Source: Candidatus Binatia bacterium (GTDB taxonomy: Bacteria > Desulfobacterota > Binatia > UBA9968 > CAXXLF01). From it: a stretch of 64,000 bases of DNA. This document shows positions 3,753 to 20,210 of this stretch, one piece after another. The position numbers and the translations under genes are program-made. The stretch's first letter is position 1. Each line of letters starts with the position of its first letter. The notes under the pieces are model-generated. The model did not search any database and was not told where the DNA came from. It saw only the letters and a program-made list of their open reading frames with translations. The stretch is from the NCBI GenBank assembly GCA_963664015.2, contig CAXXLF010000002.1:864001-928000 (forward strand), in the 5' to 3' direction.

Positions 3753-4820
3753 CTACCCGGTTGGCAGACCGTGTTTTTTGTTAAGTTTGCGCAGGGAGTC
3801 CTTGACCTCACTGGAAGGTGAGGTGGTCTCGAGCACCAAGGCCTCCGTCTCTTTCGCCCCCTGGACAACCCATCCCTCACCGAAGAAGCGGGTTGTCGCC
3901 TTTTTGAAATCCGGGTCCTTGGCAAGCTTTAGGTAGGCTCCTCGGACCATCCTGGTAATGTTATCAGGTGTGCGCCGAGGGAGAAAGACAGGCTTGTCCA
4001 GATCGCATGGTCCGGCAAAGAATTTATAAGCCTGCCGTGGCACCCCGTTCGGCCGCTTGGTCCCCATTAGTTCCTCAAAAGCCTGAAGGTTTGGAAAATC
4101 CTTTCTGCGTATCGATCCCACCACCGATACGATGTCGACCAGATTGCTTTTAACCAGACTATTCATAATCGGAACGTTTGCCGTTGCCATCATCTCGATT
4201 TCACCCTGCTGAAAGGCCAGCACCATTTCTCCGGTGCCCGCGTACCCGTAGATAAAGCGGACGTTCCACCCCAACTGCTCCGCACCCCAAAGGGTCGTTG
4301 CCAGCCAATCTCGGGTACCGTCGGAATCTCCAACTACCACCGGTTTGGCATTTGGATCTCGAAGGCGAGCGTGGGCATCCTTACGGATCATGAGAACACT
4401 CCCACCTCGATTGATCGACCCTACGGCACGGAACTCACGCGGATCGTACTTAATCTTCTTGCCCCCTCTACGGAACTGGGTCACCGTCGCCGACGAGGAT
4501 TGAAAGATATCCAGGCCGGTGGACTTGGCGACAGGGTAAAAGTAATTATTGGCAAGGACCCCGCCACCCTCGGGCATATTCTGTACGACACTCAAAGGAT
4601 TGCCGGGCAGATATCGGGGTAAAAACCGAGCCACGACCCGAGCTGCGGAATCGGTTCCGCCCCCGGCACTGGAGTTCACGAGGATCTTGATTGTTTTCTC
4701 TTTAAAAAATGATTTCCCCGATTGGGCGGTTGCCCGGGAAGTCTGGATCAGGGCCCCCAACGCAAACACCGCTAGCGAAATTATGATAATCACACTAGGA
4801 CCTCTTCTCACGGTATTCAT
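3753..4820 (-). CDS. Tripartite tricarboxylate transporter (Bug/TctC-like) substrate-binding protein
   Basis: Signal peptide; AGGGTDSAARVVARFL..LPGNP..VVQNMPEGGG; GYAGTGEMVLAFQQGEI. Confidence 0.8.
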   Translation of the reverse strand: MNTVRRGPSVIIIISLAVFALGALIQTSRATAQSGKSFFKEKTIKILVNSSAGGGTDSAARVVARFLPRYLPGNPLSVVQNMPEGGGVLANNYFYPVAKSTGLDIFQSSSATVTQFRRGGKKIKYDPREFRAVGSINRGGSVLMIRKDAHARLRDPNAKPVVVGDSDGTRDWLATTLWGAEQLGWNVRFIYGYAGTGEMVLAFQQGEIEMMATANVPIMNSLVKSNLVDIVSVVGSIRRKDFPNLQAFEELMGTKRPNGVPRQAYKFFAGPCDLDKPVFLPRRTPDNITRMVRGAYLKLAKDPDFKKATTRFFGEGWVVQGAKETEALVLETTSPSSEVKDSLRKLNKKHGLPTG

Positions 4821-4849
4821 TCAACTACCCTCCTCCTGCATTCCCGAAA

Positions 4850-4870
4850 TGATTCTGAATACCAGAATCA
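4850..4870. promoter_or_regulatory. Perfect 8-5-8 palindrome, candidate operator
   Basis: TGATTCTG-AATAC-CAGAATCA, 30 bp upstream of the TTT binding-protein start. Confidence 0.45.
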
Positions 4871-5118
4871 ATCAGAGAGTTATCCTCCGCTGCAGAATAT
4901 AAATCCTCGAGTGTTCTCTTATTCTCTTGGGTTATGGAGTCAACCCATGTCGCCGCCGAGGCCGGGGCCAGGGCTGGGACCGTAAATTTCCAACTCTTGG
5001 TAGGTCCATTGTGCTGCAGGGATTACAATTTGGAGGTGGATCAGTGCGAACTTTCCTAAAACAATATTTGGACAGTAGGATTATGCCCGGATTGCTATAA
5101 TACGGCTTGCGACCTTTG

Positions 5119-6365
5119 CTATTCCGCTGCTCCCATCCTGGACTTTTTTGTTCCCGGCTCGCGGGTGAACAAGAGCGCAATCATCGCGAGGAAATAATAA
5201 GTAGCAATGAGGGAAAAGGCGTACCCGAACCCATATTTGTGCATCATCCATCCCGTAAGGAGGGTCCAAAAGGGCCCGGACATAAAACCGATCGCGTAGT
5301 TTAGGCTGAAGGCCGCATCCATGGCCTGCTCGTCCACAATGTCGGTGAGCAGCGTCTGCGTCAGGGATTGACGGGAATGAACCGCGAGCCCGTAGAAGGA
5401 CAGGCTCACCAGTAACCAGCCGGACATGCTCGTCATCCAACCGAGCCAGGTTGTCGAGATAGCAGACACCAGGAGCGACAGCTGGAGGGTACCAACCCGG
5501 CTGAACCGATCGGATGCCCAACCCCAAAGCATAGGCGCCACCAATCCTGCAAGCTGGAGCAAGGTAAACAGGAATGCGGCATATGTCACATCCAAATTCA
5601 AATCGTTCACAAAGTGGGGGACGAGAAAAGTCGTATTGATGCCGCCACTCATGCCCGCCGCTCCGACCATGAGCACCATGGAGATAACCATAAAGTTACG
5701 ATTCTTGAGGCAGCTCTTGTATGCCTCCCAGCCCTGAAAGGCTCGTCCCCTCTTGCCCTCCCCTAGAGTGGCCACGGGAGTTTTAGACTTGACCGCGTCA
5801 CCGAATAGAAAGTAAGGCACAGCGGTGAGGAAACTGATCCCCCCGAAAATCCAGAAGATCGTTCGCCAGTCTACATAGAGAATCAGAATACCGGCCGATA
5901 GGGGTGCAAGCAGCGATCCAATACTTCCCGAAGTCGTATGAAGAGCGAGGGTTCGGCCCGCGCCTCCGGATAGTGGGTTGCCAGCATGGTGGAACCCACC
6001 GAATGTTACGGACTCGAACCGATGCCGGAGACGATTCGGGTGACCAGGACAAACGGATAACTGACCGCAAATCCCATCGGGATCACCGAAATCCCGACGA
6101 TAAATTTTCCAGTGCCCAAAATAACGCCCCGTTTCACATACTGGACGATAAGACCGTAAAGGGCTTGCAGGAACTGACCGACCATGTTCCGAAAGGTGCT
6201 GATGATACCGATCTGTACGTAGCCGAATCCCAGATCCCGCATGAGCAGCGGGAACACCACGGACATCATGGAGGTCTGAAAATGATTCACCAGATGGAAT
6301 GCGCAAACAATGCTAAAAATGTTTTTGCGGGAGAGGCCACCGTGGTTTTGATCCGCACTTGTCAT
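5119..6365 (-). pseudogene. MFS transporter, disrupted
   Basis: N-terminal part 6365-6006 ends at TAA (GSSP*HSVG). A 1-bp frameshift follows near 5958. The C-terminal half has the MFS motif WGWASDRFSR. Confidence 0.8.
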
Positions 6366-6449
6366 GGTTAATACCGACTCAGCGTTTCGGACGGTCGTTC
6401 ATCACAGATTCCCAGAAATGCTCCAAGATCCTATTCCCTGGCAACGCTG

Positions 6450-6494
6450 AATTCAACCAATTCGACTCATTCGTCTAATTCATCTAATTCAATT
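6450..6494. repeat. Five tandem imperfect 9-bp repeats
   Basis: AATTCAACC AATTCGACT CATTCGTCT AATTCATCT AATTCAATT in a divergent intergenic region. Confidence 0.7.
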
Positions 6495-6573
6495 TGCCTG
6501 TTATGAATTTAGATTGAAATCGACCGACGAATGCAATAGGTTTACCCTGGTCAGGCTCCAAGGAGGCAAAAAT

Positions 6574-8802
6574 ATGTCGTACCGAATCATAGGCCAACCA
6601 ACGCCTCGGGCCGAGTCTTCGAAGGTCACCGGTTCTGAACACTACACTAGCGACGTCCTCCTCCCGGGGACCCTTTGGGGCAAGGTGCTACGCAGTCCTT
6701 ACCCCCATGCGCGCATCGTCCACATGGACACCTCTCGTGCCGAGGCCGCAACCGGCGTACGAGCAATCCTGACCGGGAACGACGTGCGCGGGATCCTCTA
6801 CGGCCGGAACTACCGGGACCTGTCGGTCCTGGCTCAGGACCGGGTGCGATTTGTCGGCGAACGAGTGGCGGCTATCGCCGCCGACGAGCGCGACGCGGCC
6901 CAAGAGGCGCTAGACCTCATCCAAGTGGATTACGAAGAGCTCCCAGCCGTCTTCGATCCCCAAACAGCCCTCGCAGAAGGGGCCCCGATTATCCATCCGG
7001 AGGTCAACACCTACCTGGGGCTGCCCCGGCCCCTGGAGAAACCGTCCAATGCCTACGTCCACGATCTCCACGAACAAGGGGACCTGGAGACGGGGTTTGC
7101 CCAGTCGGACTTGATTGTAGAGAACACCTTTACGACCCCTCGGGTGCATCAGGCCTTTCTGGAGCCCCATTGCTGCATGGTCTGGATCGATGAACAGAAA
7201 AGGGTCCAGATCTGGTCCTCCAGCAAGGCGCCTCACGTTCTAAAAGAAAGCATGGCCGACGCCCTGAAGATTCCCCCCGAACGTATTCGGGTCAACCCCG
7301 TATCCATTGGTGGGGACTTTGGCGGTAAAGGCGGGGCCCTCGACGAGCCTATCGCCTATTACCTCGCCCAGCGTTCCGGCCGGCCGGTAAAGATGATCAT
7401 GGATTACCAGGAGGAGTTCATGGCCGGAGACCCACGCCATGCGGCCATCTTCAAGATGAAAACAGGCGTCAAACGAGACGGCACTCTCGTGGCCCACCAG
7501 ATGGAGGCCTACTTCGACAGCGGCGCTTATGGCGGACTCAGGCCCGGAGCCAGTATCAATGGAGCCAGTAAAGGCGGCACCTGGTACCGCTGCCCCCATG
7601 CCCGCATCTCGGTCAAGCGGATCTACACCAACAACATGCCCGGCGGACAGATGAGGGCGCCGGGAGAGCCCCAGTCGTACTTCGCCGCCGAATCCCATAT
7701 GGACTGTGTCGCGCATAAACTCGGGATAGACCCACTGGAGTTCCGGCGAAAGAATCTCATTGAAGAAGGAGACAGGACGCTGAATGGAGACCTCTACCAG
7801 GGGGTCAGGGCCAAGGAGACCCTGGAGGCTGCGGTGAGAGCAGCCCGCTATAACGCTCCTAGGTCGCCCAACGTCGGGCGAGGAATCGCTATGGGCCACC
7901 GGGCTCCTGGAGGAGGATTTACCTCCCTTGCGATCGAACTGAATCCCGACGGATCCGTCGTCCTGCACACTGGGGTCATAGAACAAGGGACCGGTACCTA
8001 TACCACCCACAGGCAAATCGTGGCGGAGGAATTGTCCCTTCGCCCCGATGATATCCAGATCAAGATCCTCGATACCGATTCGTCCCCTTTTGACTCGGGT
8101 ATCGGTGGCAGCCGAGGAACTCGCACCGCCACCCAAACGGCTTTTGAAGCTGCTATAGAAACCAAACAGGAGCTATTTCGCATGGCGGAAGAGCACCTGG
8201 GATGGTCTCGGGCAGAATTGACCCTGGTGGGCAGGGATATCGTTCGCAAGAGAACACGAGAGCGCCACCGTTGGGACCGACTCCTGGCCCGGGCGGGCCG
8301 TTCCATCTTCAAGCAGGTCATCAATCAGGACCGGGGCCACGCCCCGTTGACCGCCTTCACCGCCCAGGTTGCCGAGGTCTCGGTGGATCCCGAGACCGGA
8401 AAGGTTCAGCTCCTTCACTTTACGACGGCTCACGACGTGGGGACGATCATCAATCCGATCGGCCACCAGGGACAGATAGACGGAGGAGTCGTTCAAGGCA
8501 TCGGCTTTGCACTGACGGAAGAGCTCCACGTAGACGGGGGTCGCGTGGGGACACTCCACTTCGGGGATTACAAGATTCCTACAGCAAGAGATATTCCTAC
8601 GCTAAGAACCGTGATCGTCAAAGGCAAAGATGGGGTGGGGCCGTACAAGGCCAAAGGAATCGGTGAAAACCCCAACACGCCGGTGGCCGGGGCGATAGCC
8701 AATGCGGTGGAAGACGCCGTGGGTGTCCGTATTCGCGACCTTCCCGTCACAGCCGAGAAGGTCTGCAAGGCCCTACATGCAAAGAAAGTAAATACGATCT
8801 AG
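6574..8802 (+). CDS. Xanthine dehydrogenase/CoxL-family molybdopterin-binding large subunit (orphan #1)
   Basis: KVTG..Y..D, LRSPYPHARI, HQAFLEPH, GGDFGGK, QMRAPG, GQIDGGVVQGIG, KGIGE; RBS AGGAGG before ATG 6574. Confidence 0.92.
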   Translation: MSYRIIGQPTPRAESSKVTGSEHYTSDVLLPGTLWGKVLRSPYPHARIVHMDTSRAEAATGVRAILTGNDVRGILYGRNYRDLSVLAQDRVRFVGERVAAIAADERDAAQEALDLIQVDYEELPAVFDPQTALAEGAPIIHPEVNTYLGLPRPLEKPSNAYVHDLHEQGDLETGFAQSDLIVENTFTTPRVHQAFLEPHCCMVWIDEQKRVQIWSSSKAPHVLKESMADALKIPPERIRVNPVSIGGDFGGKGGALDEPIAYYLAQRSGRPVKMIMDYQEEFMAGDPRHAAIFKMKTGVKRDGTLVAHQMEAYFDSGAYGGLRPGASINGASKGGTWYRCPHARISVKRIYTNNMPGGQMRAPGEPQSYFAAESHMDCVAHKLGIDPLEFRRKNLIEEGDRTLNGDLYQGVRAKETLEAAVRAARYNAPRSPNVGRGIAMGHRAPGGGFTSLAIELNPDGSVVLHTGVIEQGTGTYTTHRQIVAEELSLRPDDIQIKILDTDSSPFDSGIGGSRGTRTATQTAFEAAIETKQELFRMAEEHLGWSRAELTLVGRDIVRKRTRERHRWDRLLARAGRSIFKQVINQDRGHAPLTAFTAQVAEVSVDPETGKVQLLHFTTAHDVGTIINPIGHQGQIDGGVVQGIGFALTEELHVDGGRVGTLHFGDYKIPTARDIPTLRTVIVKGKDGVGPYKAKGIGENPNTPVAGAIANAVEDAVGVRIRDLPVTAEKVCKALHAKKVNTI

Positions 8803-8867
8803 TGCCACCGCACTGACCAGCAAACCCGTTCTGCCTAGAATGGTGTAATCCATATACGCAGCCTTGG

Positions 8868-9746
8868 CTACGAGCCAAGGCGCAGGAAAGCAACACCCAT
8901 GACCGCAAGCAGGCTGGCCAGTACAACCCGTTGCGTGATCTGTTCCAATCCTCGTAAAAATACCGCACTCAAGAGCACGGTAATGAGCGGCACGGTTTCC
9001 ATTATGGGTGTGACACGAACAACCTCGCCATAGAAGAGCGCATAAAATCCAATGATCCAAGCCGCGATTACGAATACGGTGGAAAGGACAAAGCAAAGGA
9101 AACTCCTTTTCTCATACGTCAGGGCGCTACGAGTCGATCCGGATGCCGCTAGTAAGGCCAAGGAAAACAGGAAGCCGCCCGTGGTACCGATTGCCGCGCC
9201 GAAAATAGGTGCATTAAACACTAAGAGGCCAGCCTTACGGAGAACCTCGGAGCCTCCCCGAACTGCTGCGGCTGCAACTCCTAAGAGAAAGCCTCGGTTA
9301 CGTAGCATACGGAAGTCGAAGCCTTGTTTTTCATTCTTAGGCACGGCCAGGAAAGCAGCTCCCATGGTGAGACACATCCCCAACATCTTTAAAGGCGTAA
9401 GTTTCTCATCAAAAAACGCCACGGAAATCATGGAGACAATCAGTGGGAAGCTGTTGGTAGCGGTGGATGACAGGGATACCCCGATCCGGGAAATAGCGGA
9501 GTAAAGGAAAAAACGGAAGAGGCCTGGGGCAAGCACTCCCGCCGCCAAAAAATAGGGCAGAGAGCGGACGCTCCATACTTGCAACGGGTAGAAGATGATG
9601 AGCAAGGTAAGAAAGACAAGAAACGTTACCGTGAGGGAGACTATGACCGCTGTAGTCGAATTGGAGCCAAAAGCCAGCCCCTTACGCACGGCTATATTGC
9701 TCAACGCGTACCTGAGTGCGGTGATAAAAGATAACGACTCGATCAT
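8868..9746 (-). CDS. DMT/EamA family transporter
   Basis: About 10 hydrophobic segments in two EamA repeats (FFDEKLT...; VRVTPIMETVPLITVLLSAVFL). Confidence 0.85.
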   Translation of the reverse strand: MIESLSFITALRYALSNIAVRKGLAFGSNSTTAVIVSLTVTFLVFLTLLIIFYPLQVWSVRSLPYFLAAGVLAPGLFRFFLYSAISRIGVSLSSTATNSFPLIVSMISVAFFDEKLTPLKMLGMCLTMGAAFLAVPKNEKQGFDFRMLRNRGFLLGVAAAAVRGGSEVLRKAGLLVFNAPIFGAAIGTTGGFLFSLALLAASGSTRSALTYEKRSFLCFVLSTVFVIAAWIIGFYALFYGEVVRVTPIMETVPLITVLLSAVFLRGLEQITQRVVLASLLAVMGVAFLRLGS

Positions 9747-9970: not shown

Positions 9971-10867
9971 ATGAACATCATAATCATAGGCAATCCGATA
10001 GCGGGACGGGGGAAGGCAAATCGCCAGATCGAGAGCCTGCCAAAGATACTCGAGCGACAGGGTCACCGAGTCACGACGTTTTAAACTCAAGCCGCGGGAG
10101 AAGCGGGACGTTGGGCCAGCCATGTCAAGCCCGACACAGGGGCCGTTGTCGTCGCCGGTGGCGACGGAACCCTAAACGAATTTCTTAACGGTATTCATGA
10201 TCCAAGTCGCGTACCCGTTGCCCTATTGCCCACCGGCAGCGCCAACGTCCTCGCCCATGAGCTAGGGTTGCCTTACGAGCCCGAGCAAATTGCCCGAATG
10301 ATTGATCGGGGAATGGTGCGGAGGATTGATATGGGGCAACTCGGTAATCGCCGTTTCCTGCTGCTGGTCAGCGCAGGCATTGATGCAATGGTTACCGAGT
10401 CGATCCAACGGAGCCGGAGGGGCACCCTTGGCTATAGCGGCTATCTGCTCCCCCCCCTAAAAGTGATCGTTCATTATCGTTTCCAAAAGCCTGAGGTCAC
10501 GGTCGATGGTCGGGAACCTGTGAGTGGAACTCTCGTTATGGTCAGTAACGTTCAAAACTACGGAGGAATTTTTAGTATTACGGATCGCGCTCGTAGCGGT
10601 TCTGGCCACCTGGATATCTGTGTATTCCACCATGGGACTATTCTAGCGCTGATTCGGTATGCCTTCTATGCACTTCGCCGCAGGGTATCGTGCCTGGCCG
10701 ATGTGACCTATCTTACGGGGAAGACCATTCGAATTGATTCTGAAGAGCCCGTTGCCGTAGAAGTAGACGGGGACTATTTCGTTACGACTCCGGCCGTGAT
10801 CGAGCTTAAACCTGCCTACGTTCCCATCCTCGTCCCTCACACGCCGCCGAACCAATGCATTCCATAG
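9971..10867 (+). pseudogene. Diacylglycerol-kinase-family (YegS/DgkB-like) lipid kinase with an in-frame stop
   Basis: MNIIIIGNPIAGRG...TTF*(TAA 10082-10084)TQAAG...VAGGDGTLNE...LPTGSANVLA; same frame as ORF 10226..10867. Confidence 0.85.
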
Positions 10868-13800: not shown

Positions 13801-14603
13801 GGGCACAACGGAAGCCGATATTATGATGCCCCGACCGGTAGTTTCGGGAGAGATCTCGGCCTCGCTGAGTTGTCGTCAACTCCTCCGGCTGTGAATAGTG
13901 GCCGCCCCCCACGAGTGCCGCGAACAGGCCCGGGCTCAGCCGCCTCACGACCATCGAGAGCATCGTACGGGTACGATCGATAGATACTGCTCACCCATTC
14001 CCAGACGTTTCCGCTGAGATCCAAAACACCATCAGGACTGGCCCCTCTGGGAAAACTCCCCACGGGAGCGGTTTCATTCCAACCCGCTTGGAACTGTCCC
14101 CGGCTCAAGTCCGGCGGGCTAGCCCCCCACGGGAACCTGCGCCCATCGGTTCCACTGGCCGCCTTTTCCCATTCGGCCTCGGTGGGCAGGCGCCTTCCCG
14201 CCCAGGCGCAGTACTTTCGCGCACCCGACCAGGAGACTTCAACCACCGGATGATGACCGTAACCCGGGTCTGCCGCCCATTCTCCGTCTGTCCAGTGAAT
14301 GCGCGCGTCATCGTCATCGATGTCATAAAACCTCTCCCCCTCGGATCCGGTTGGTCCCATGGCGTTGAGGAATACAGCAAACTGACGGATGGTCACCGGT
14401 GTGCGATCGATGAAACACGCCGGTAGCTCTACACGATGGCGCGGTCTCTCATCCGCCGGTCCCGAATCGCTCCCCATCGTAAAGGGGCCCGCAGGGATAG
14501 GGATCAGCGGCGTGAGCCCACCCTTTCCATCCTGCCCGTAGCTAACACCCCAGGGCACCAAGCAAAGGAGGAGTACTTGAACTAACACAGTGAATCGACT
14601 CAT
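13772..14603 (-). pseudogene. SUMF1/EgtB/PvdO (FGE-sulfatase) domain protein with signal peptide, frameshifted near the C-terminus
   Basis: IPAGPFTMGS, DERPRH, RLPTEAEWEKAA, LDLSGNVWEW, RGG. The terminal HNIGFRCA is in another frame after a C6 run at 13905-13910. Confidence 0.8.
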
Positions 14604-14756
14604 GGTCTTTATGCATCCGAGATAAGAGGCAGCCATCCTAGCATTTCACAACTCCGCACACCACGCTCTTGAGTACACGTCATTTAATTTTCCATATTGA
14701 CTCGACCCCAATTGGCCTCTATAGTTGTTACAGAATCCGGTCGCCCAACCGTTCTC

Positions 14757-15914
14757 ATGCCCAGTTCAATGCCAGCAGACATTACCTTTCAACGCCGCGG
14801 AACCGTCGAAGGTTTTTTTGGACCTCCTTGGAGTATGTCCCATCGCGCTGACCTGTTCGTCTTCGGCCAAAGACACGGCATGAATACTTACCTCTACGCG
14901 CCAAAGGATGACCCCTACCATCGGGAGCACTGGGAAAAACCCTACCCGGAATCTCAGTGGAAGGAGTTGTTAAATCTTATTACCCTGGCACATCAGCATT
15001 GGATCGACTTCGTTTACGGTTTCCATCCTGGGAAGAATCTGCACTTCACCGCGGACGAACCTATCGACTGGTTGCTGCGTAAAGCCAAACTCCTCTATGA
15101 CGCTGGAGTGCGGACCTTCGCGGTCCTATTTGACGACATTCCCTCCTCCTTGGAATTTTCCGAAGACAAAAAGCAGTATCAGGGAAGTCTCGCTCGAGCC
15201 GAAGGTCAATGGCTCAAGCGCATCCTGGAACAACAGCCAACCAGCTGGAATGGGGTCGAATGGTGGATCTGTCCATCCTATTATACTGAAGACCCACTTC
15301 TCGCCCGCGTCTTCGGCAAATTTGAACCCTCGTTTCTGGAGACCCTGAGCCAGAACTTACCCGCTCCCGTGGCCTGTTTCTGGACCGGTCCGTTGGTTGT
15401 CTCTGAATCCATTAGCCTGACCCATGTGCAAAAGGTCATCAATGCTCTAAACCATCGCCTGATCTTATGGGACAATTACCCGGTCAACGATCTGAGCATG
15501 AGCATGGAGATGCATCTGGACCCAATCACAGGCCGGGACCCGCGGCTACCAGAGCAGGTCTATGGTTATTTGAATAACCCCTTGGTCCAGGCCTCTTTAA
15601 GCTTGATCCCCCTGGCCACGTGCTTCGACTTCGCCGCTAACACCCGAACCTACGACCCGGAGCGTAGCTGGGAGCGCGGCGTGACCGAGTGTTTCGGGAA
15701 AGAGGCCCTTATCCACTGGCAGGTATTGCGCGAATTCTATAATAGGATCAATCCATTAAAAGAAAAAAAACGCCCCATCCGCCTGACCGCTGAGGAGCGC
15801 TCGGCTCTCGAACGGGCCCACGGTTACCTGTTGGAACATGGGAACGAACCCTGGGTTAGAGAGTTTGCTCCCTGGCTTGCGATCTTAAAAGCGAATCTGG
15901 GAGTTGATCAATGA
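14757..15914 (+). CDS. GH84 beta-N-acetylglucosaminidase (O-GlcNAcase-like), no signal peptide
   Basis: RGTVEGFFGPPWS, YLYAPKDDPYHR, catalytic FAVLFDDIP, CPSYY, FWTG, LILWDNYPVND; start codon uncertain (14757 or 14769). Confidence 0.9.
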   Translation: MPSSMPADITFQRRGTVEGFFGPPWSMSHRADLFVFGQRHGMNTYLYAPKDDPYHREHWEKPYPESQWKELLNLITLAHQHWIDFVYGFHPGKNLHFTADEPIDWLLRKAKLLYDAGVRTFAVLFDDIPSSLEFSEDKKQYQGSLARAEGQWLKRILEQQPTSWNGVEWWICPSYYTEDPLLARVFGKFEPSFLETLSQNLPAPVACFWTGPLVVSESISLTHVQKVINALNHRLILWDNYPVNDLSMSMEMHLDPITGRDPRLPEQVYGYLNNPLVQASLSLIPLATCFDFAANTRTYDPERSWERGVTECFGKEALIHWQVLREFYNRINPLKEKKRPIRLTAEERSALERAHGYLLEHGNEPWVREFAPWLAILKANLGVDQ

Positions 15915-16024
15915 CCATAAGTATCTTAAAGTTACAAAATTCAATCTACGAGCAGGATCCGTAATGGGCTCAAACGTCGGCTGAAATTTTTTTACCGACG
16001 CCTCCTTGCCTCAATCAAACCATC

Positions 16025-16981
16025 GTGAAGATCCAACTCGTAACACCCGCACCGGCCGACGCTCGAAACGGCAATCGCATGACGGCTTTGCGATGGGCCA
16101 GAATCTTACAACGGCAACGCCACCATGTCATCATTTCGGGCCGCTATTCGGGCCGACCTTGCGACCTCGTGATCGCCCTCCATGCGCTACGCAGTTACGA
16201 ATCGATCCGCCACTATCGGGATCTGCATCCGACAGCGCCACTGATCGTTGCCCTAACTGGCACGGATCTCTACCGGGATATACGCACCAATTCCCATGCA
16301 AGGGAATCCCTTGAACTGGCCACTCGACTCGTTGTGTTGCAGAAAAAGGCCAAGGATGATCTTCCCCGCCATCTCCATCAAAAGACACGAGTCATCTATC
16401 AGTCAGCGCCACGACTTCAGGGTACACCTCCGGAGAGTGAGCGGATCTTCAAGGTCTGCGTAGTCGGACATATGCGATCCGAGAAAGACCCCATGCGCAC
16501 CGCCATGGCCGCCCGTCTTCTTCCTTCGACCTCCCGAATAGCAGTCCTCCATATCGGCCGCGCCCTGACCGAGGACTTCCATCACCGCGCCGGACGGGAG
16601 GCCAAGCGAAACCCACGATATCGGTGGCTCGGGGACCTGCCCCATTGGAAGACTCGCAGGATATTGGCCGGATGCCATCTCTTGTCCCTGACATCGAGAA
16701 TGGAAGGGAGTTCCAATGTGCTCTCTGAGGCCATCGCCTCATCGGTCCCGGTGGTCGCCTCTAAAATCGCTGGACTCATAGGCACCCTGGGGGATCAGTA
16801 TTCAGGATACTTCCCCGTGGGCGATACTCGAGCGCTGTCTCACTTGCTCAGAAAAGTTGAGAACAACCCCAAGTTTTATCGTGAGCTCAAAAAGCACAGT
16901 AGGCGGCTATTTTCCCTGGTGGACCCCCGGGTTGAATACAAGTCGTGGTCCAAGCTCCTGAAAGAACTCCGCAAGCCATAA
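16025..16981 (+). CDS. senB: SenB-type selenosugar synthase (TIGR04348-family GT-B glycosyltransferase)
   Basis: VTPAP..RNGNRMTALRWARIL, DLVIALHALRS, LIVALTGTDLYRDI, VGHMRSEKDP, SRMEGSSNVLSEA, GYFPVGD. Confidence 0.88.
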   Translation: MKIQLVTPAPADARNGNRMTALRWARILQRQRHHVIISGRYSGRPCDLVIALHALRSYESIRHYRDLHPTAPLIVALTGTDLYRDIRTNSHARESLELATRLVVLQKKAKDDLPRHLHQKTRVIYQSAPRLQGTPPESERIFKVCVVGHMRSEKDPMRTAMAARLLPSTSRIAVLHIGRALTEDFHHRAGREAKRNPRYRWLGDLPHWKTRRILAGCHLLSLTSRMEGSSNVLSEAIASSVPVVASKIAGLIGTLGDQYSGYFPVGDTRALSHLLRKVENNPKFYRELKKHSRRLFSLVDPRVEYKSWSKLLKELRKP

Positions 16982-17974: not shown

Positions 17975-19956
17975 TTAATGCACCGTTTTGCTTCTGGTGA
18001 GTTGCAAGTTCCTGTTGGAATCCACCTTTGCCGCCATCCCGGTGGCACGACAACGGTAGAGCTAAACTCGTAGATCACCGCAGGCCCATCAACCCTACTC
18101 CCCGTATTCAGTCTCTCGCGCTGGTAAACGGAACAACGGCGCATGGGTCCGGAGAAAAACACACTCTTGTTACCCAAGAACCCGGGTTGTTTCCTGTCCC
18201 TCCCCCAACACCCCTGCCCGCCTTTATCGATTTACCCTTACCTTCGATACGTACCATCAAGGTGACTAGCTCTATATCCTTCCGAGGGTCACTGTGACCA
18301 AAGCGAGACTCGTGCAGCTGATGGAACCGGCCGACAAAACCCTTTTTCCACGGGATCGTCAACTTGTAGGCCTGTCCCACGTAACGGACATCCACCCAGA
18401 AGCGAATCTTTACCTTGCTTCTTTCCAGGCCATCCCGTTGCATCTCTTTTAACCCCAACTCTTTCAAGACCAACAGCCTTCCATTAATCTTTCTGTATTC
18501 GGGCCGCGACTCAAGGATTGACAAGGAAAAATCCCTGACCAATGGGGTGACGGCCATTCCCCAAGCGGAAAAGAGACCGGGCCAAAGAGGGATGAGCAGA
18601 CGAAATATACCAAGACCCTCCGCAAGCTCCGCCGCGTGAAGGCCACCGGCACCACCAAAGGCAAACAGGGTAAAATTTCTGGGATCCAGACCCCGTTCGA
18701 GAGTCACAGCCCGGATTGCACGGTCCATATTACTGTTTACCACCTGTAGAATGCCCCAGGCGATCATCTCAGAATCCAATCCAACTTGTCGCGCTAACTC
18801 TCTCATACTACTTCGAGTTCGACGGAGTTCAAGTGCGATCCGACCGCCCAGAAAACGCTCAGGATCCAAACGCCCGAGAACAAGGTTGGCATCGGTAACT
18901 GTTATATCGCGCCCCTTGCCATAACAGACGGGGCCCGGTTCCGCACCCGCGCTCTCGGGTCCCACTTTCAATGCACCGCCCGCGTCCAACCTAGCAACGG
19001 ACCCCCCTCCGGCACCGACAGTGTGAATATCCACCATGGGGACCTTCACGGGAACACCTGCCACCACCTTCTCAGCGGTCAGGGGAATTTCTCTCTCCAC
19101 AGGACACACATCGGTCGATGTCCCGCCCATATCGAGACTAATGATCTTTCCAATCCCGGCCTGCCGGGCTAACTGATGGGCGGCAACGACCCCGAGAGTA
19201 GCGTCCTTACGGATTGCTCACGGGCCATACGTGCAGTCATGGCTCCCCCCATTGGACTGCATGACCCGGAATTCCCCCGTGAACTTTTTACTCCCCCGTT
19301 TGAATACCCGATCTAAGTCCAGGATATGGCGGAAAATGGCAGGCGTCACCTAGGCGTTGAGTACCGTCGTGGAAAACCGTTCGTACTCTCGATACTCGGG
19401 AACAATCCTATGAGATAAAGATACAGGGAGCCCCAGGGCCCCAAGTTCTCGAGCCACCCTCTTCTCGTGGGTCGGATTTCGATAGGAGTGAAGGAAACCC
19501 ACTGCCACCGATTCCACGCCCATATCCCGAATCCGTATTTTGACTTGCTTCAGTTCCCTGAGGGAGAGTGAAATAAGGACGCGACCATCGGCCAGAATTC
19601 GTTCCTTCACGCCAAAACGTAGGGAACGGGACACCAAGGGCACAAGTGGCCTTGGTTCAAGTGCGTAAAGATCAGAGCGAGCCTGGCGGCCGATCTCGAT
19701 CAAGTCTTCAAACCCTCGGGTCGTCAGCCACGCCACCCTTCGCCCCATTTCGTTCCAACAAGGCGTTGGTCGCCACCGTGGCTCCATAGGTAACCCGTAT
19801 CATTCCTGCCTGATCGATGAGTTCTTTCATGCCTGTCAATACGGCACGGGCGGGGTTGCCGGGGGTCGACGGCACCTTGTGGACAGCAATCCCCTTCGTA
19901 CCGAGCAGGACAAAATCAGTAAATGTTCCTCCAGTATCAATCCCTAAAAGAACCAT
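17975..19956 (-). pseudogene. Hydantoinase/5-oxoprolinase A-subunit family, multiply disrupted
   Basis: GIDTGGTFTD, KVPSTP, REYERFSTTVLNA*(TAG 19350-19352), DMGGTSTDV, IHTVGAGGGS, GPESAGAEPGPVCYG, FGGAGGLHA across at least four frames. Confidence 0.9.
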
Positions 19957-20210
19957 TGACTCGACATGCTTCTTATGTTTCACGATTGCACTATTCTAAC
20001 TTTTCTAACCCGGTTGACGAGTTGAGGAGCACGCCGAACCGGTTTCGACAGACGCGTGCGCCGGCAAGAGCGAGTCAATCGGGTCAACCGGGCAATGACC
20101 GGGCCCACGATTCAATTTTGTGGAAGATAGATTCGACTTCCAGGCCAAGAGCCTGGACACAGGACAATGGATTTGGAGAGGGCGAATTTTATTATTAATA
20201 ATTAGGTTGT

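Follow-up and report, generated by a model that had tools for sequence, protein, structure and literature searches.

A GH84 glycosidase gene paired with the selenosugar synthase gene senB in a selenoneine cluster of uncultured Binatia, and a possible role for it in selenoneine release

Why does a gene for a glycoside hydrolase of family GH84 stand directly upstream of a gene for the selenosugar synthase SenB? The pair lies in a stretch of 64,000 nucleotides from a Candidatus Binatia bacterium (assembly GCA_963664015.2, contig CAXXLF010000002.1, positions 864,001 to 928,000), which we call the window and number from its first letter. The source genome (G000) comprises 3.5 Mb in two contigs (C1 and C2), is 97% complete and holds the window at C2:864001-928000. 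Selenoneine biosynthesis is currently described as three enzymes followed by a spontaneous selenoxide elimination. A sequence-only reading of the locus had seen in the pair an undescribed system that makes and cleaves selenium glycosides of N-acetylglucosamine (GlcNAc), either to store and release selenide or to unmask a selenol product in an oxygenase-independent pathway. Here, we interpret the pair as what is left of the core of an extended selenoneine cluster particular to this lineage, with the ancestral order egtD ... GH84-[VOC]-[ABH]-senA-senB (square brackets mark optional genes; ABH, alpha/beta hydrolase), and we give about even credence to the proposal that the GH84 hydrolyses hercynyl-SeGlcNAc, or any related Se-GlcNAc conjugate, and so releases selenoneine.

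The identity of both genes is clear. The upstream open reading frame (ORF) spans 14697-15914 on the forward strand, and translation from the ATG at 14757 gives a protein of 385 amino acids (aa) that matches Pfam PF07555 (NAGidase) at residues 14-317 with 277.8 bits (cut-off 25) and carries the motifs VEGFFG, YAPKDD, LFDDIP and WDNYPVND. Given that the catalytic domain starts at about residue 11, there is no room for a signal peptide and the enzyme is expected to be cytoplasmic. The public gene call (P0004) begins at M27 and yields 359 aa; we prefer a start at 14757 (or 14769) because that of P0004 removes the strand FQRRG.VEGFFGPPW, which is invariant in all orthologues, and the public start is probably misannotated. 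Against the NCBIfam model NF041654 (GlcNAcase, an equivalog of 732 positions for the secreted type) the protein scores 193.7 bits over profile positions 144-429 only, which places it outside that equivalog, for which at least 1000 bits are required. Its closest sequence match in the PDB is 5DIY, the O-GlcNAc hydrolase of Thermobaculum terrenum (2.2e-65). An AlphaFold2 model (pLDDT 90.4, pTM 0.89) has a TIM barrel followed by a C-terminal helical bundle (helices 283-381), and a Foldseek search with it ranks 5DIY first (TM 0.84, 1.6e-32, 31% identity), followed by CpOGA, OgOGA, BtGH84 and hOGA, with identities to solved GH84s of 23-31% over the structural alignments.

The catalytic apparatus is intact. 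D126-D127, within LFDDIP, align with the Asp-Asp of CpOGA at chain positions 267/268, which we take to be the catalytic pair numbered D297/D298, and with the Asp-Asn of 5DIY, a D120N mutant. In an alignment of 55 sen-linked and 57 other GH84s, from which rows starting after residue 20 or ending before residue 300 were dropped, this pair is invariant in 112/112 sequences, and G15, E18, K50, D52, D126, D127, Y176, W209, W238-D245 and N274 are common to the sen-linked and the other enzymes. Compared with the characterized GH84 O-GlcNAcases (TtOGA 5DIY, CpOGA/NagJ 2CBJ, BtGH84, OgOGA and hOGA), the window protein shares the barrel and helical bundle and keeps the Asp-Asp pair, the Lys and Asp of YAPKDD, the catalytic Tyr, the WDNYPVND loop and the Asn of NP, but it is compact, has no carbohydrate-binding module (CBM) and is encoded in a selenometabolite operon. 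Judged from these residues and the fold, the enzyme should be catalytically competent.

The downstream gene encodes a SenB that scores 399.1 bits against TIGR04348 (cut-off 300), covers profile positions 1-309 of 310 and matches the PDB SenB chains 8JJQ, 8FBX and 8K5U from end to end (about 3e-58). The residues N20, T23, K158 and E231 (and R155 and E239) of the Variovorax paradoxus enzyme were addressed by mutagenesis (PMC10891094, available text); in the alignment with 8JJQ, N20, T23, R155, K158, E231 and E239 correspond to N17, T20, R151, K154, E228 and E236 here, and the Asn and Thr/Ser positions are kept in 41/41 SenBs examined. The sugar-donor motif EGGAHV of the characterized enzyme reads EGSSNV in the window (residues 227-232, window 16703-16720), with the Glu kept. 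It is EGS[SA]N[VA] in 31/31 operonic SenBs of the clade and EGGAN[VA] in 8/8 from other orders of the class, and among the SenBs compared EGGAHV proper is found only in two metagenome loci (L105 and L107) described below; the shift may reflect donor preference or may just follow lineage. The description that the sequence-only reading gave of the pair, a GH84 with intact motifs and no signal peptide 110 bp upstream of a co-oriented SenB gene, is thus accurate.

All four enzymes of the selenoneine pathway, SenA, SenB, selenophosphate synthetase (SelD) and EgtD, are encoded in the source genome, scattered and with no senABC cassette (Table 1). Neither SenA nor SelD was found inside the 64-kb window, as had been stated before; both lie elsewhere in the genome, and no second match at the level of EgtB was found in G000. 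The single in-frame TGA of SelD is read as a putative selenocysteine codon, and a 350-aa ORF 3' of this gene (L004) has no Pfam or NCBIfam match. Given that SenA, EgtD and SelD are in the genome, SenB is explained by an ordinary but scattered selenoneine pathway, and an oxygenase-independent pathway, or a SenB without partners, is ruled out. The genome search for selD and senA had been set beforehand as a refuting test for the make-and-cleave idea; the partners that it returned account for SenB, and the GH84 is left unexplained by the canonical pathway.

Hence, the question narrows to the GH84, and its gene order in relatives is informative. The relatives are uncultured ‘Binatia’ metagenome-assembled genomes, 42 of them from the same order, in three families. 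GH84 and senB are both present in 38 of the 42 and on one contig in 37, and in 37/37 of these one-contig genomes the two genes share a strand, with GH84 upstream of senB and 324-4351 nt between them. As exceptions, G009 has the two genes on separate contigs, G023 has its senB on a 2.9-kb contig, and in G016 GH84 adjoins SenA and SenB was not found. G003 is without SenB and GH84, as is G001 (source's family, 95% complete), in which SenA and EgtD were found; in G001, GH84 and SenB were either lost together or both fall into one assembly gap.

Locus maps made by tblastn for 18 fetched loci and the window resolve the arrangement. In the sister families the order is GH84-[VOC]-[ABH]-senA-senB in 16/16 loci, with senA between GH84 and senB, and spacers in the operon can be as short as 6-36 nt (L051, for instance, has spacers of 17 and 6 nt, and L045 has spacers of 36 and 6 nt). 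ABH (about 272 aa) is present in 6/16 of these loci (L043, L044, L049, L090, L092 and L093) and VOC (about 269 aa) in 4/16 (L044, L049, L092 and L093); both are optional, given that they are absent from the whole of one family (f3), and both may extend the pathway. VOC has a glyoxalase fold and no NCBIfam match, and ABH is distantly like meta-cleavage-product hydrolases. In L090 and L093, EgtD is encoded a few kb upstream, and SelD was found in no mapped cluster of the order. In the source's family, GH84 and senB are directly adjacent in 3/3 loci (the window, G002 and G004) and only these two genes stay together: in G002 and G004 a distance of 0.8-1.4 Mb separates SenA from them, in G000 it is encoded on the other contig, egtD is likewise scattered, and homologues of ABH (58% identical) and VOC (51%) lie in G000 at C1:802075-802896 and C2:333982-334785. 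In a maximum-likelihood tree of SenA (midpoint root) the source's family forms a clade (100/100), its sister group being the order's operonic SenAs (99/97), and the SenAs of the order are separate from those of other orders. Because the tree groups it with the operonic SenAs, senA has been moved and not replaced in this family, and a foreign replacement is ruled out. The GH84-senB adjacency thus outlasted the break-up of the cluster. Flanking genes vary between families while the core persists, although an FGE-like gene and CinA are partly conserved. The adjacency that the sequence-only reading had singled out is therefore kept across three families of one order.

Chance alone does not account for the pairing. 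In a class-wide sample of 251 genomes, GH84 is present in 76 and SenB in 45 (the 76 include G587, flagged as unpublished, on which no result rests). Outside the order, GH84 is found in 39/213 genomes and SenB in eight; only three genomes (G380, G492 and G564) have both, always on different contigs. In a phylum-wide sample, GH84 is present in 5/401 genomes and SenB in 4/401. Other orders supplied 23 GH84 loci, whose proteins share 29-36% identity with that of the window; SenA, SenB, EgtD or SelD was found within about 8 kb at 0/23 of them. They also supplied eight sen loci, all with senA-senB, of which three include egtD and one includes selD. Two further observations concern sen genes themselves: in G428 (L086, C6:22468-23394) senA and senB share one open frame of 754 aa, which may be a SenA-SenB fusion, and G183, a genome with GH84 and no SenB, has a SenA-like match of 360 bits, below the cut-off, in an 883-aa frame (C15:226954-228222).

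Metagenome contigs give the same picture. A scan with an alignment of the sen-linked subfamily returned 547 relatives, and among the best 80, which were analyzed, 44 loci are 54-64% identical, 36 are 32-37% identical and none falls between. Of the 44 subfamily loci, 24 have at least 1.5 kb downstream; SenA or SenB is present in 20 of these 24 and at least one of SenA, SenB, ABH and VOC in 22, and EgtD is found in 7/12 subfamily loci with at least 4.5 kb upstream. No sen gene was found at any of the 36 loci of other GH84s (26 of them flanked by 1.5 kb or more on at least one side), which brings the count for other GH84s overall (29-37% identical) to 0/59. A single-protein scan of genome contigs with the GH84 returned only two loci, both known relatives. 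Two metagenome contigs (L105 and L107, about 4684-9128) are arranged differently: one strand carries a true SenB (373.5 bits) and an ArsR-rhodanese fusion, the opposite strand carries a fatty-acid-hydroxylase-family gene and then a subfamily GH84, and no SenA was found within 8 kb.

The sen-linked GH84s are also distinct as proteins. They are 54-73% identical to one another, no other GH84 compared exceeds 37% identity to them, and at 375-390 aa they align from end to end with no CBM or extra domains, whereas most others have 120-390 additional C-terminal residues. Twelve positions switch between the groups (F21, W68, H90, F97, W152, Q160, W169, S174, F193, L281, F290 and A293 on the sen-linked side), of which F21 is Tyr in 88% and F193 is Tyr in 98% of the other GH84s, and the sen-linked enzymes have an insertion of about nine residues around L182-G187. 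The aglycone site may therefore be remodelled in this subfamily.

What would a glycosidase do in such a cluster? In the proposed route, the housekeeping, selenocysteine-type SelD would supply selenophosphate, SenB would turn it into 1-seleno-beta-GlcNAc (SeGlcNAc), and SenA would join this selenosugar to hercynine, the product of EgtD, to give the hercynyl-SeGlcNAc selenoxide. The GH84 would then cut the beta-Se-GlcNAc bond of hercynyl-SeGlcNAc by substrate-assisted catalysis, acting on the selenoxide or, more importantly, on the thiol-reduced selenoether, which would not eliminate spontaneously, to yield recyclable GlcNAc along with selenoneine (or its selenenic acid). Where the cytoplasm is rich in thiols, reduction would compete with elimination. 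We propose the GH84 as the hydrolase for two reasons: the selenoether would be a dead end unless its beta-Se-GlcNAc bond is cleaved, and, with the substrate's 2-acetamido moiety as the nucleophile, the enzyme would need only a good leaving group, for which imidazole-2-selone is suited. O-GlcNAcase reportedly cleaves thioglycosides without general acid catalysis. The chemistry fits, given that SenB inverts UDP-alpha-sugars to 1-seleno-beta-sugars (PMC10891094, available text), which match the stereochemistry of GH84 substrates, as the sequence-only reading had expected of the two product and substrate classes. When a SenA reaction was run with DTT (dithiothreitol), the reduced hercynyl-SeGlcNAc selenoether was detected and the selenoxide was not, according to the part of the preprint available (bioRxiv 10.1101/2022.04.13.486033). 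The earlier idea that the GH84 unmasks a selenol from an R-Se-GlcNAc intermediate therefore survives as a step downstream of SenA, but not as one in place of SenA.

Several observations weigh against this proposal. Characterized sen clusters (Variovorax and others) make selenoneine without a glycosidase: a spontaneous Cope elimination of the selenoxide is proposed and judged to be enough, and an EgtE-like enzyme is deemed unnecessary, in the available text of the same preprint (bioRxiv 10.1101/2022.04.13.486033). GH84 was found in 0/8 sen clusters of other orders of the class, a result that also marks the link as order-specific. L099 and L100, two near-identical subfamily contigs next to a transposase, show no sen gene over 8 kb downstream. 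F21 matches Tyr69 of hOGA, a platform for the substrate peptide, but the hOGA variant Y69F stays active (PMC3476531), so F21 is ruled out as a mark of lost peptide recognition. In the source genome it is senB that the GH84 stayed with, although the proposed substrate would come from SenA. Furthermore, the linkage evolved a single time, within one order of uncultured bacteria, and inherited synteny is therefore possible; and a housekeeping role is possible because the GH84 is the only beta-N-acetylglucosaminidase detected in the source genome, in which GH3 and GH20 were not found.

The last two points lead to an explanation without any functional coupling, in which the GH84 is a housekeeping cytoplasmic GlcNAcase, for recycling of GlcNAc or cell wall or for removal of GlcNAc from proteins or lipids, and its proximity to sen genes is inherited synteny. 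We regard this as unlikely, but several observations favour it: each genome of the order has a single GH84, sen-less GH84s are common in other orders of the class (the 39/213 genomes above), and other neighbours of the pair, the FGE-like gene and CinA, are partly conserved as well. Against it, the sen-linked enzymes form a discrete subfamily, with no intermediates among the best 80 of 547 metagenome relatives, and are packed tightly into an operon whose core persists while its flanks vary by family. The joint absence of SenB and GH84 from G001, which keeps SenA and EgtD, points the same way, although an assembly gap could also produce it. In addition, PF13844, the family of the GT41 O-GlcNAc transferase (OGT), has no match in G000, whereas 2/14 control genomes are positive, which argues against protein O-GlcNAc cycling by an OGT and an O-GlcNAcase.

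The position of the GH84 beside senB rather than senA in the source's family bears on a second alternative, in which the enzyme returns free SeGlcNAc (or its diselenide or other derivatives) to GlcNAc and selenide, as a valve that buffers the selenosugar or, under a shortage of hercynine or oxygen, recycles selenium. This is what remains of the store-and-release idea of the sequence-only reading, and we consider it the weaker account and rather improbable. All of the linkage evidence applies to it equally, L105 and L107 have a true SenB near the GH84 with an ArsR-rhodanese regulator beside it and no SenA within 8 kb, and hydrogen selenide would, we infer, be a good leaving group. Yet if one operon encoded both a synthase and an enzyme that hydrolyses what the synthase makes, the result would be a futile cycle at a cost in UDP-GlcNAc and ATP, and an ancestral operon with both senA and senB (16/16 loci) suits a pathway step better than a salvage valve. 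SeGlcNAc accumulates in an ovsA deletion mutant (PMC11030361, available text), which speaks against the valve, although no GH84 is known from that organism.

A third alternative starts from the sugar that the spontaneous route leaves behind. N-Acetylglycals are inhibitors of hexosaminidases and are not known to be substrates. The GH84, possibly together with VOC and ABH, could handle a by-product such as 2-acetamidoglucal from the selenoxide elimination and return it to GlcNAc; the published mechanism predicts a glycal from the Cope elimination (bioRxiv 10.1101/2022.04.13.486033, available text), and hydrolase- or isomerase-type genes do stand between GH84 and senA in the minority of sister-family loci counted above. 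We think this highly improbable, given that GH84 enzymes lack an enzymic nucleophile, that nothing was found in support of glycal hydration by a GH84 and that VOC and ABH are optional.

With hydrolysis of hercynyl-SeGlcNAc as the preferred function, the Binatia cluster can be set beside known systems. It shares with senABC of Variovorax paradoxus (Kayrouz et al.) a SenB (399 bits) and a SenA (483 bits) above the NCBI equivalog cut-offs, together with EgtD and a selenophosphate synthetase in the source genome, and the predicted intermediates (selenophosphate, SeGlcNAc and hercynyl-SeGlcNAc selenoxide) are the same. It differs in that the source genome has no dedicated senC, its SelD being the selenocysteine-containing housekeeping copy beside selB, that its genes are scattered, that the lineage adds GH84 and in part VOC and ABH, and that the SenB motif is EGS[SA]N[VA] rather than EGGAHV. 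In ergothioneine biosynthesis, EgtC and EgtE act after the synthase, and the proposed GH84 step would follow the same logic, in which the carrier part of the sulfur or selenium donor is removed from C2 of hercynine. The likeness would be one of function only, given that EgtC and EgtE are an amidohydrolase and a pyridoxal-phosphate (PLP) lyase, from families unrelated to glycoside hydrolases. The ovoselenol cluster ovsA-ovsM-senB-senC, as far as the available text describes it, likewise combines selenosugar genes (there senB and senC) with a non-haem-iron selenoxide synthase and one lineage-specific accessory gene, and its genes are sometimes separated on the chromosome; however, its accessory gene encodes a methyltransferase, its substrate is histidine and most of its organisms are without egtD (PMC11030361), whereas the Binatia lineage has a SenA that scores as SenA, EgtD and a glycosidase as the accessory.

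A full-text literature search found no paper that links selenoneine to a glycosidase or a selenosugar to GH84, nor, among the papers listed (20 of 34), one that brings a sen term together with an N-acetylglucosaminidase in a selenium context, in agreement with the view of the sequence-only reading that the pairing is undescribed. Within the available text, which does not extend to the supplements with gene-cluster figures, no hydrolase is mentioned in bioRxiv 10.1101/2022.04.13.486033, PMC10891094 or PMC11030361, no glycosidase in either of the two preprints (the first and the last of these), and none of GH84, VOC and ABH in any of the three. The selenoneine system itself is known; what is new is a selenoneine cluster with a conserved, subfamily-specific glycosidase.

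Table 1 Features of the window and pathway genes elsewhere in the source genome; plain coordinates are window positions, and C1 and C2 are the contigs of the source genome.
Feature	Location	Strand	Evidence
GH84 beta-N-acetylglucosaminidase, compact sen-linked subfamily, 385 aa	14757..15914	+	PF07555, motifs, fold model
Spacer between GH84 and senB, 110 bp	15915..16024	+	ORF ends
SenB selenosugar synthase (GT-B, GT4-like), 318 aa, GTG start	16025..16981	+	TIGR04348
Promoter-like site before GH84	14697..14725	+	Consensus match only, 10/12 hexamer matches
Secreted FGE-sulfatase-domain protein, 271 aa, divergent from GH84	13821..14636	-	PF03781 161 bits
SenA, DinB_2 and FGE-sulfatase domains	C1:689398-690690		482.6 bits (cut-off 420)
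SelD, one in-frame TGA, directly after selB	C2:1311134-1312057		372.7 bits
EgtD	C2:665396-666292		PF10017 290.5 bits

Within the window, co-transcription of GH84 and senB is plausible from the sequence: a scan found no terminator-like site on the forward strand of the spacer, and a promoter-like site lies at 15716-15743, within the 3' end of GH84. The region has four promoter-like sites against 2.2 expected, so the one before GH84 is weak evidence. The GC content around the pair is 0.545-0.546, within the 0.51-0.58 found across the window, and gives no signal of recent horizontal transfer.

The protein divergent from GH84, which consists of an FGE-sulfatase domain alone, has as its best NCBIfam matches the C-terminal, substrate-binding halves of SenA (93.6 bits) and EgtB. 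It falls far below the SenA cut-off of 420 bits, has no DinB_2 iron domain and carries a signal-peptide-like N-terminus, and is thereby ruled out as a cryptic SenA. Divergently oriented orthologues with 48-69% identity stand upstream of GH84 in 5/18 genome loci of the order (L043, L049, L050, L088 and L090) and in 16/24 metagenome loci with at least 900 nt upstream. The protein is a conserved neighbour and a possible member of the cluster; one conceivable role is to bind or process a histidine-derived compound that the cell exports.

Two other genes of the window appear incomplete. A hydantoinase/oxoprolinase A gene at 18108-19983 (reverse strand) is in pieces: one ORF (340 aa) matches Hydantoinase_A over positions 86-286 only, and another (145 aa) matches the N-terminal domain over positions 76-171 only. 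In G002 the orthologue occupies a single frame of at least 615 aa, which runs to the 5' end of L050, and the fragments are either a frameshifted pseudogene or the result of an assembly indel error. An ORF for a YegS/DAG-kinase-type lipid kinase at 10226-10867 (forward strand) is without about the first 85 positions of the catalytic domain and may be truncated or frameshifted.

We tentatively suggest, with somewhat less confidence than we place in the hydrolysis itself, that the sen-linked GH84 is the first dedicated Se-glycoside hydrolase and provides an enzymatic last step of selenoneine biosynthesis that rescues the selenoether, within a Binatia-type cluster of five to six genes that includes VOC and ABH. 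The hypothesis is testable with substrates from the published SenA, SenB and SenC reactions. If it holds, the reach of GH84 chemistry, so far O- and S-glycosides, would come to include Se-glycosides, and the enzyme would offer a means to raise selenoneine yield in engineered producers, in which the reduced selenoether is a dead end. For a widespread uncultured lineage of soil and marine bacteria, it would add selenium small-molecule metabolism. More broadly, the conserved glycosidase in the operon suggests either that release is assisted by an enzyme in at least one lineage, or that selenosugar levels are actively controlled.

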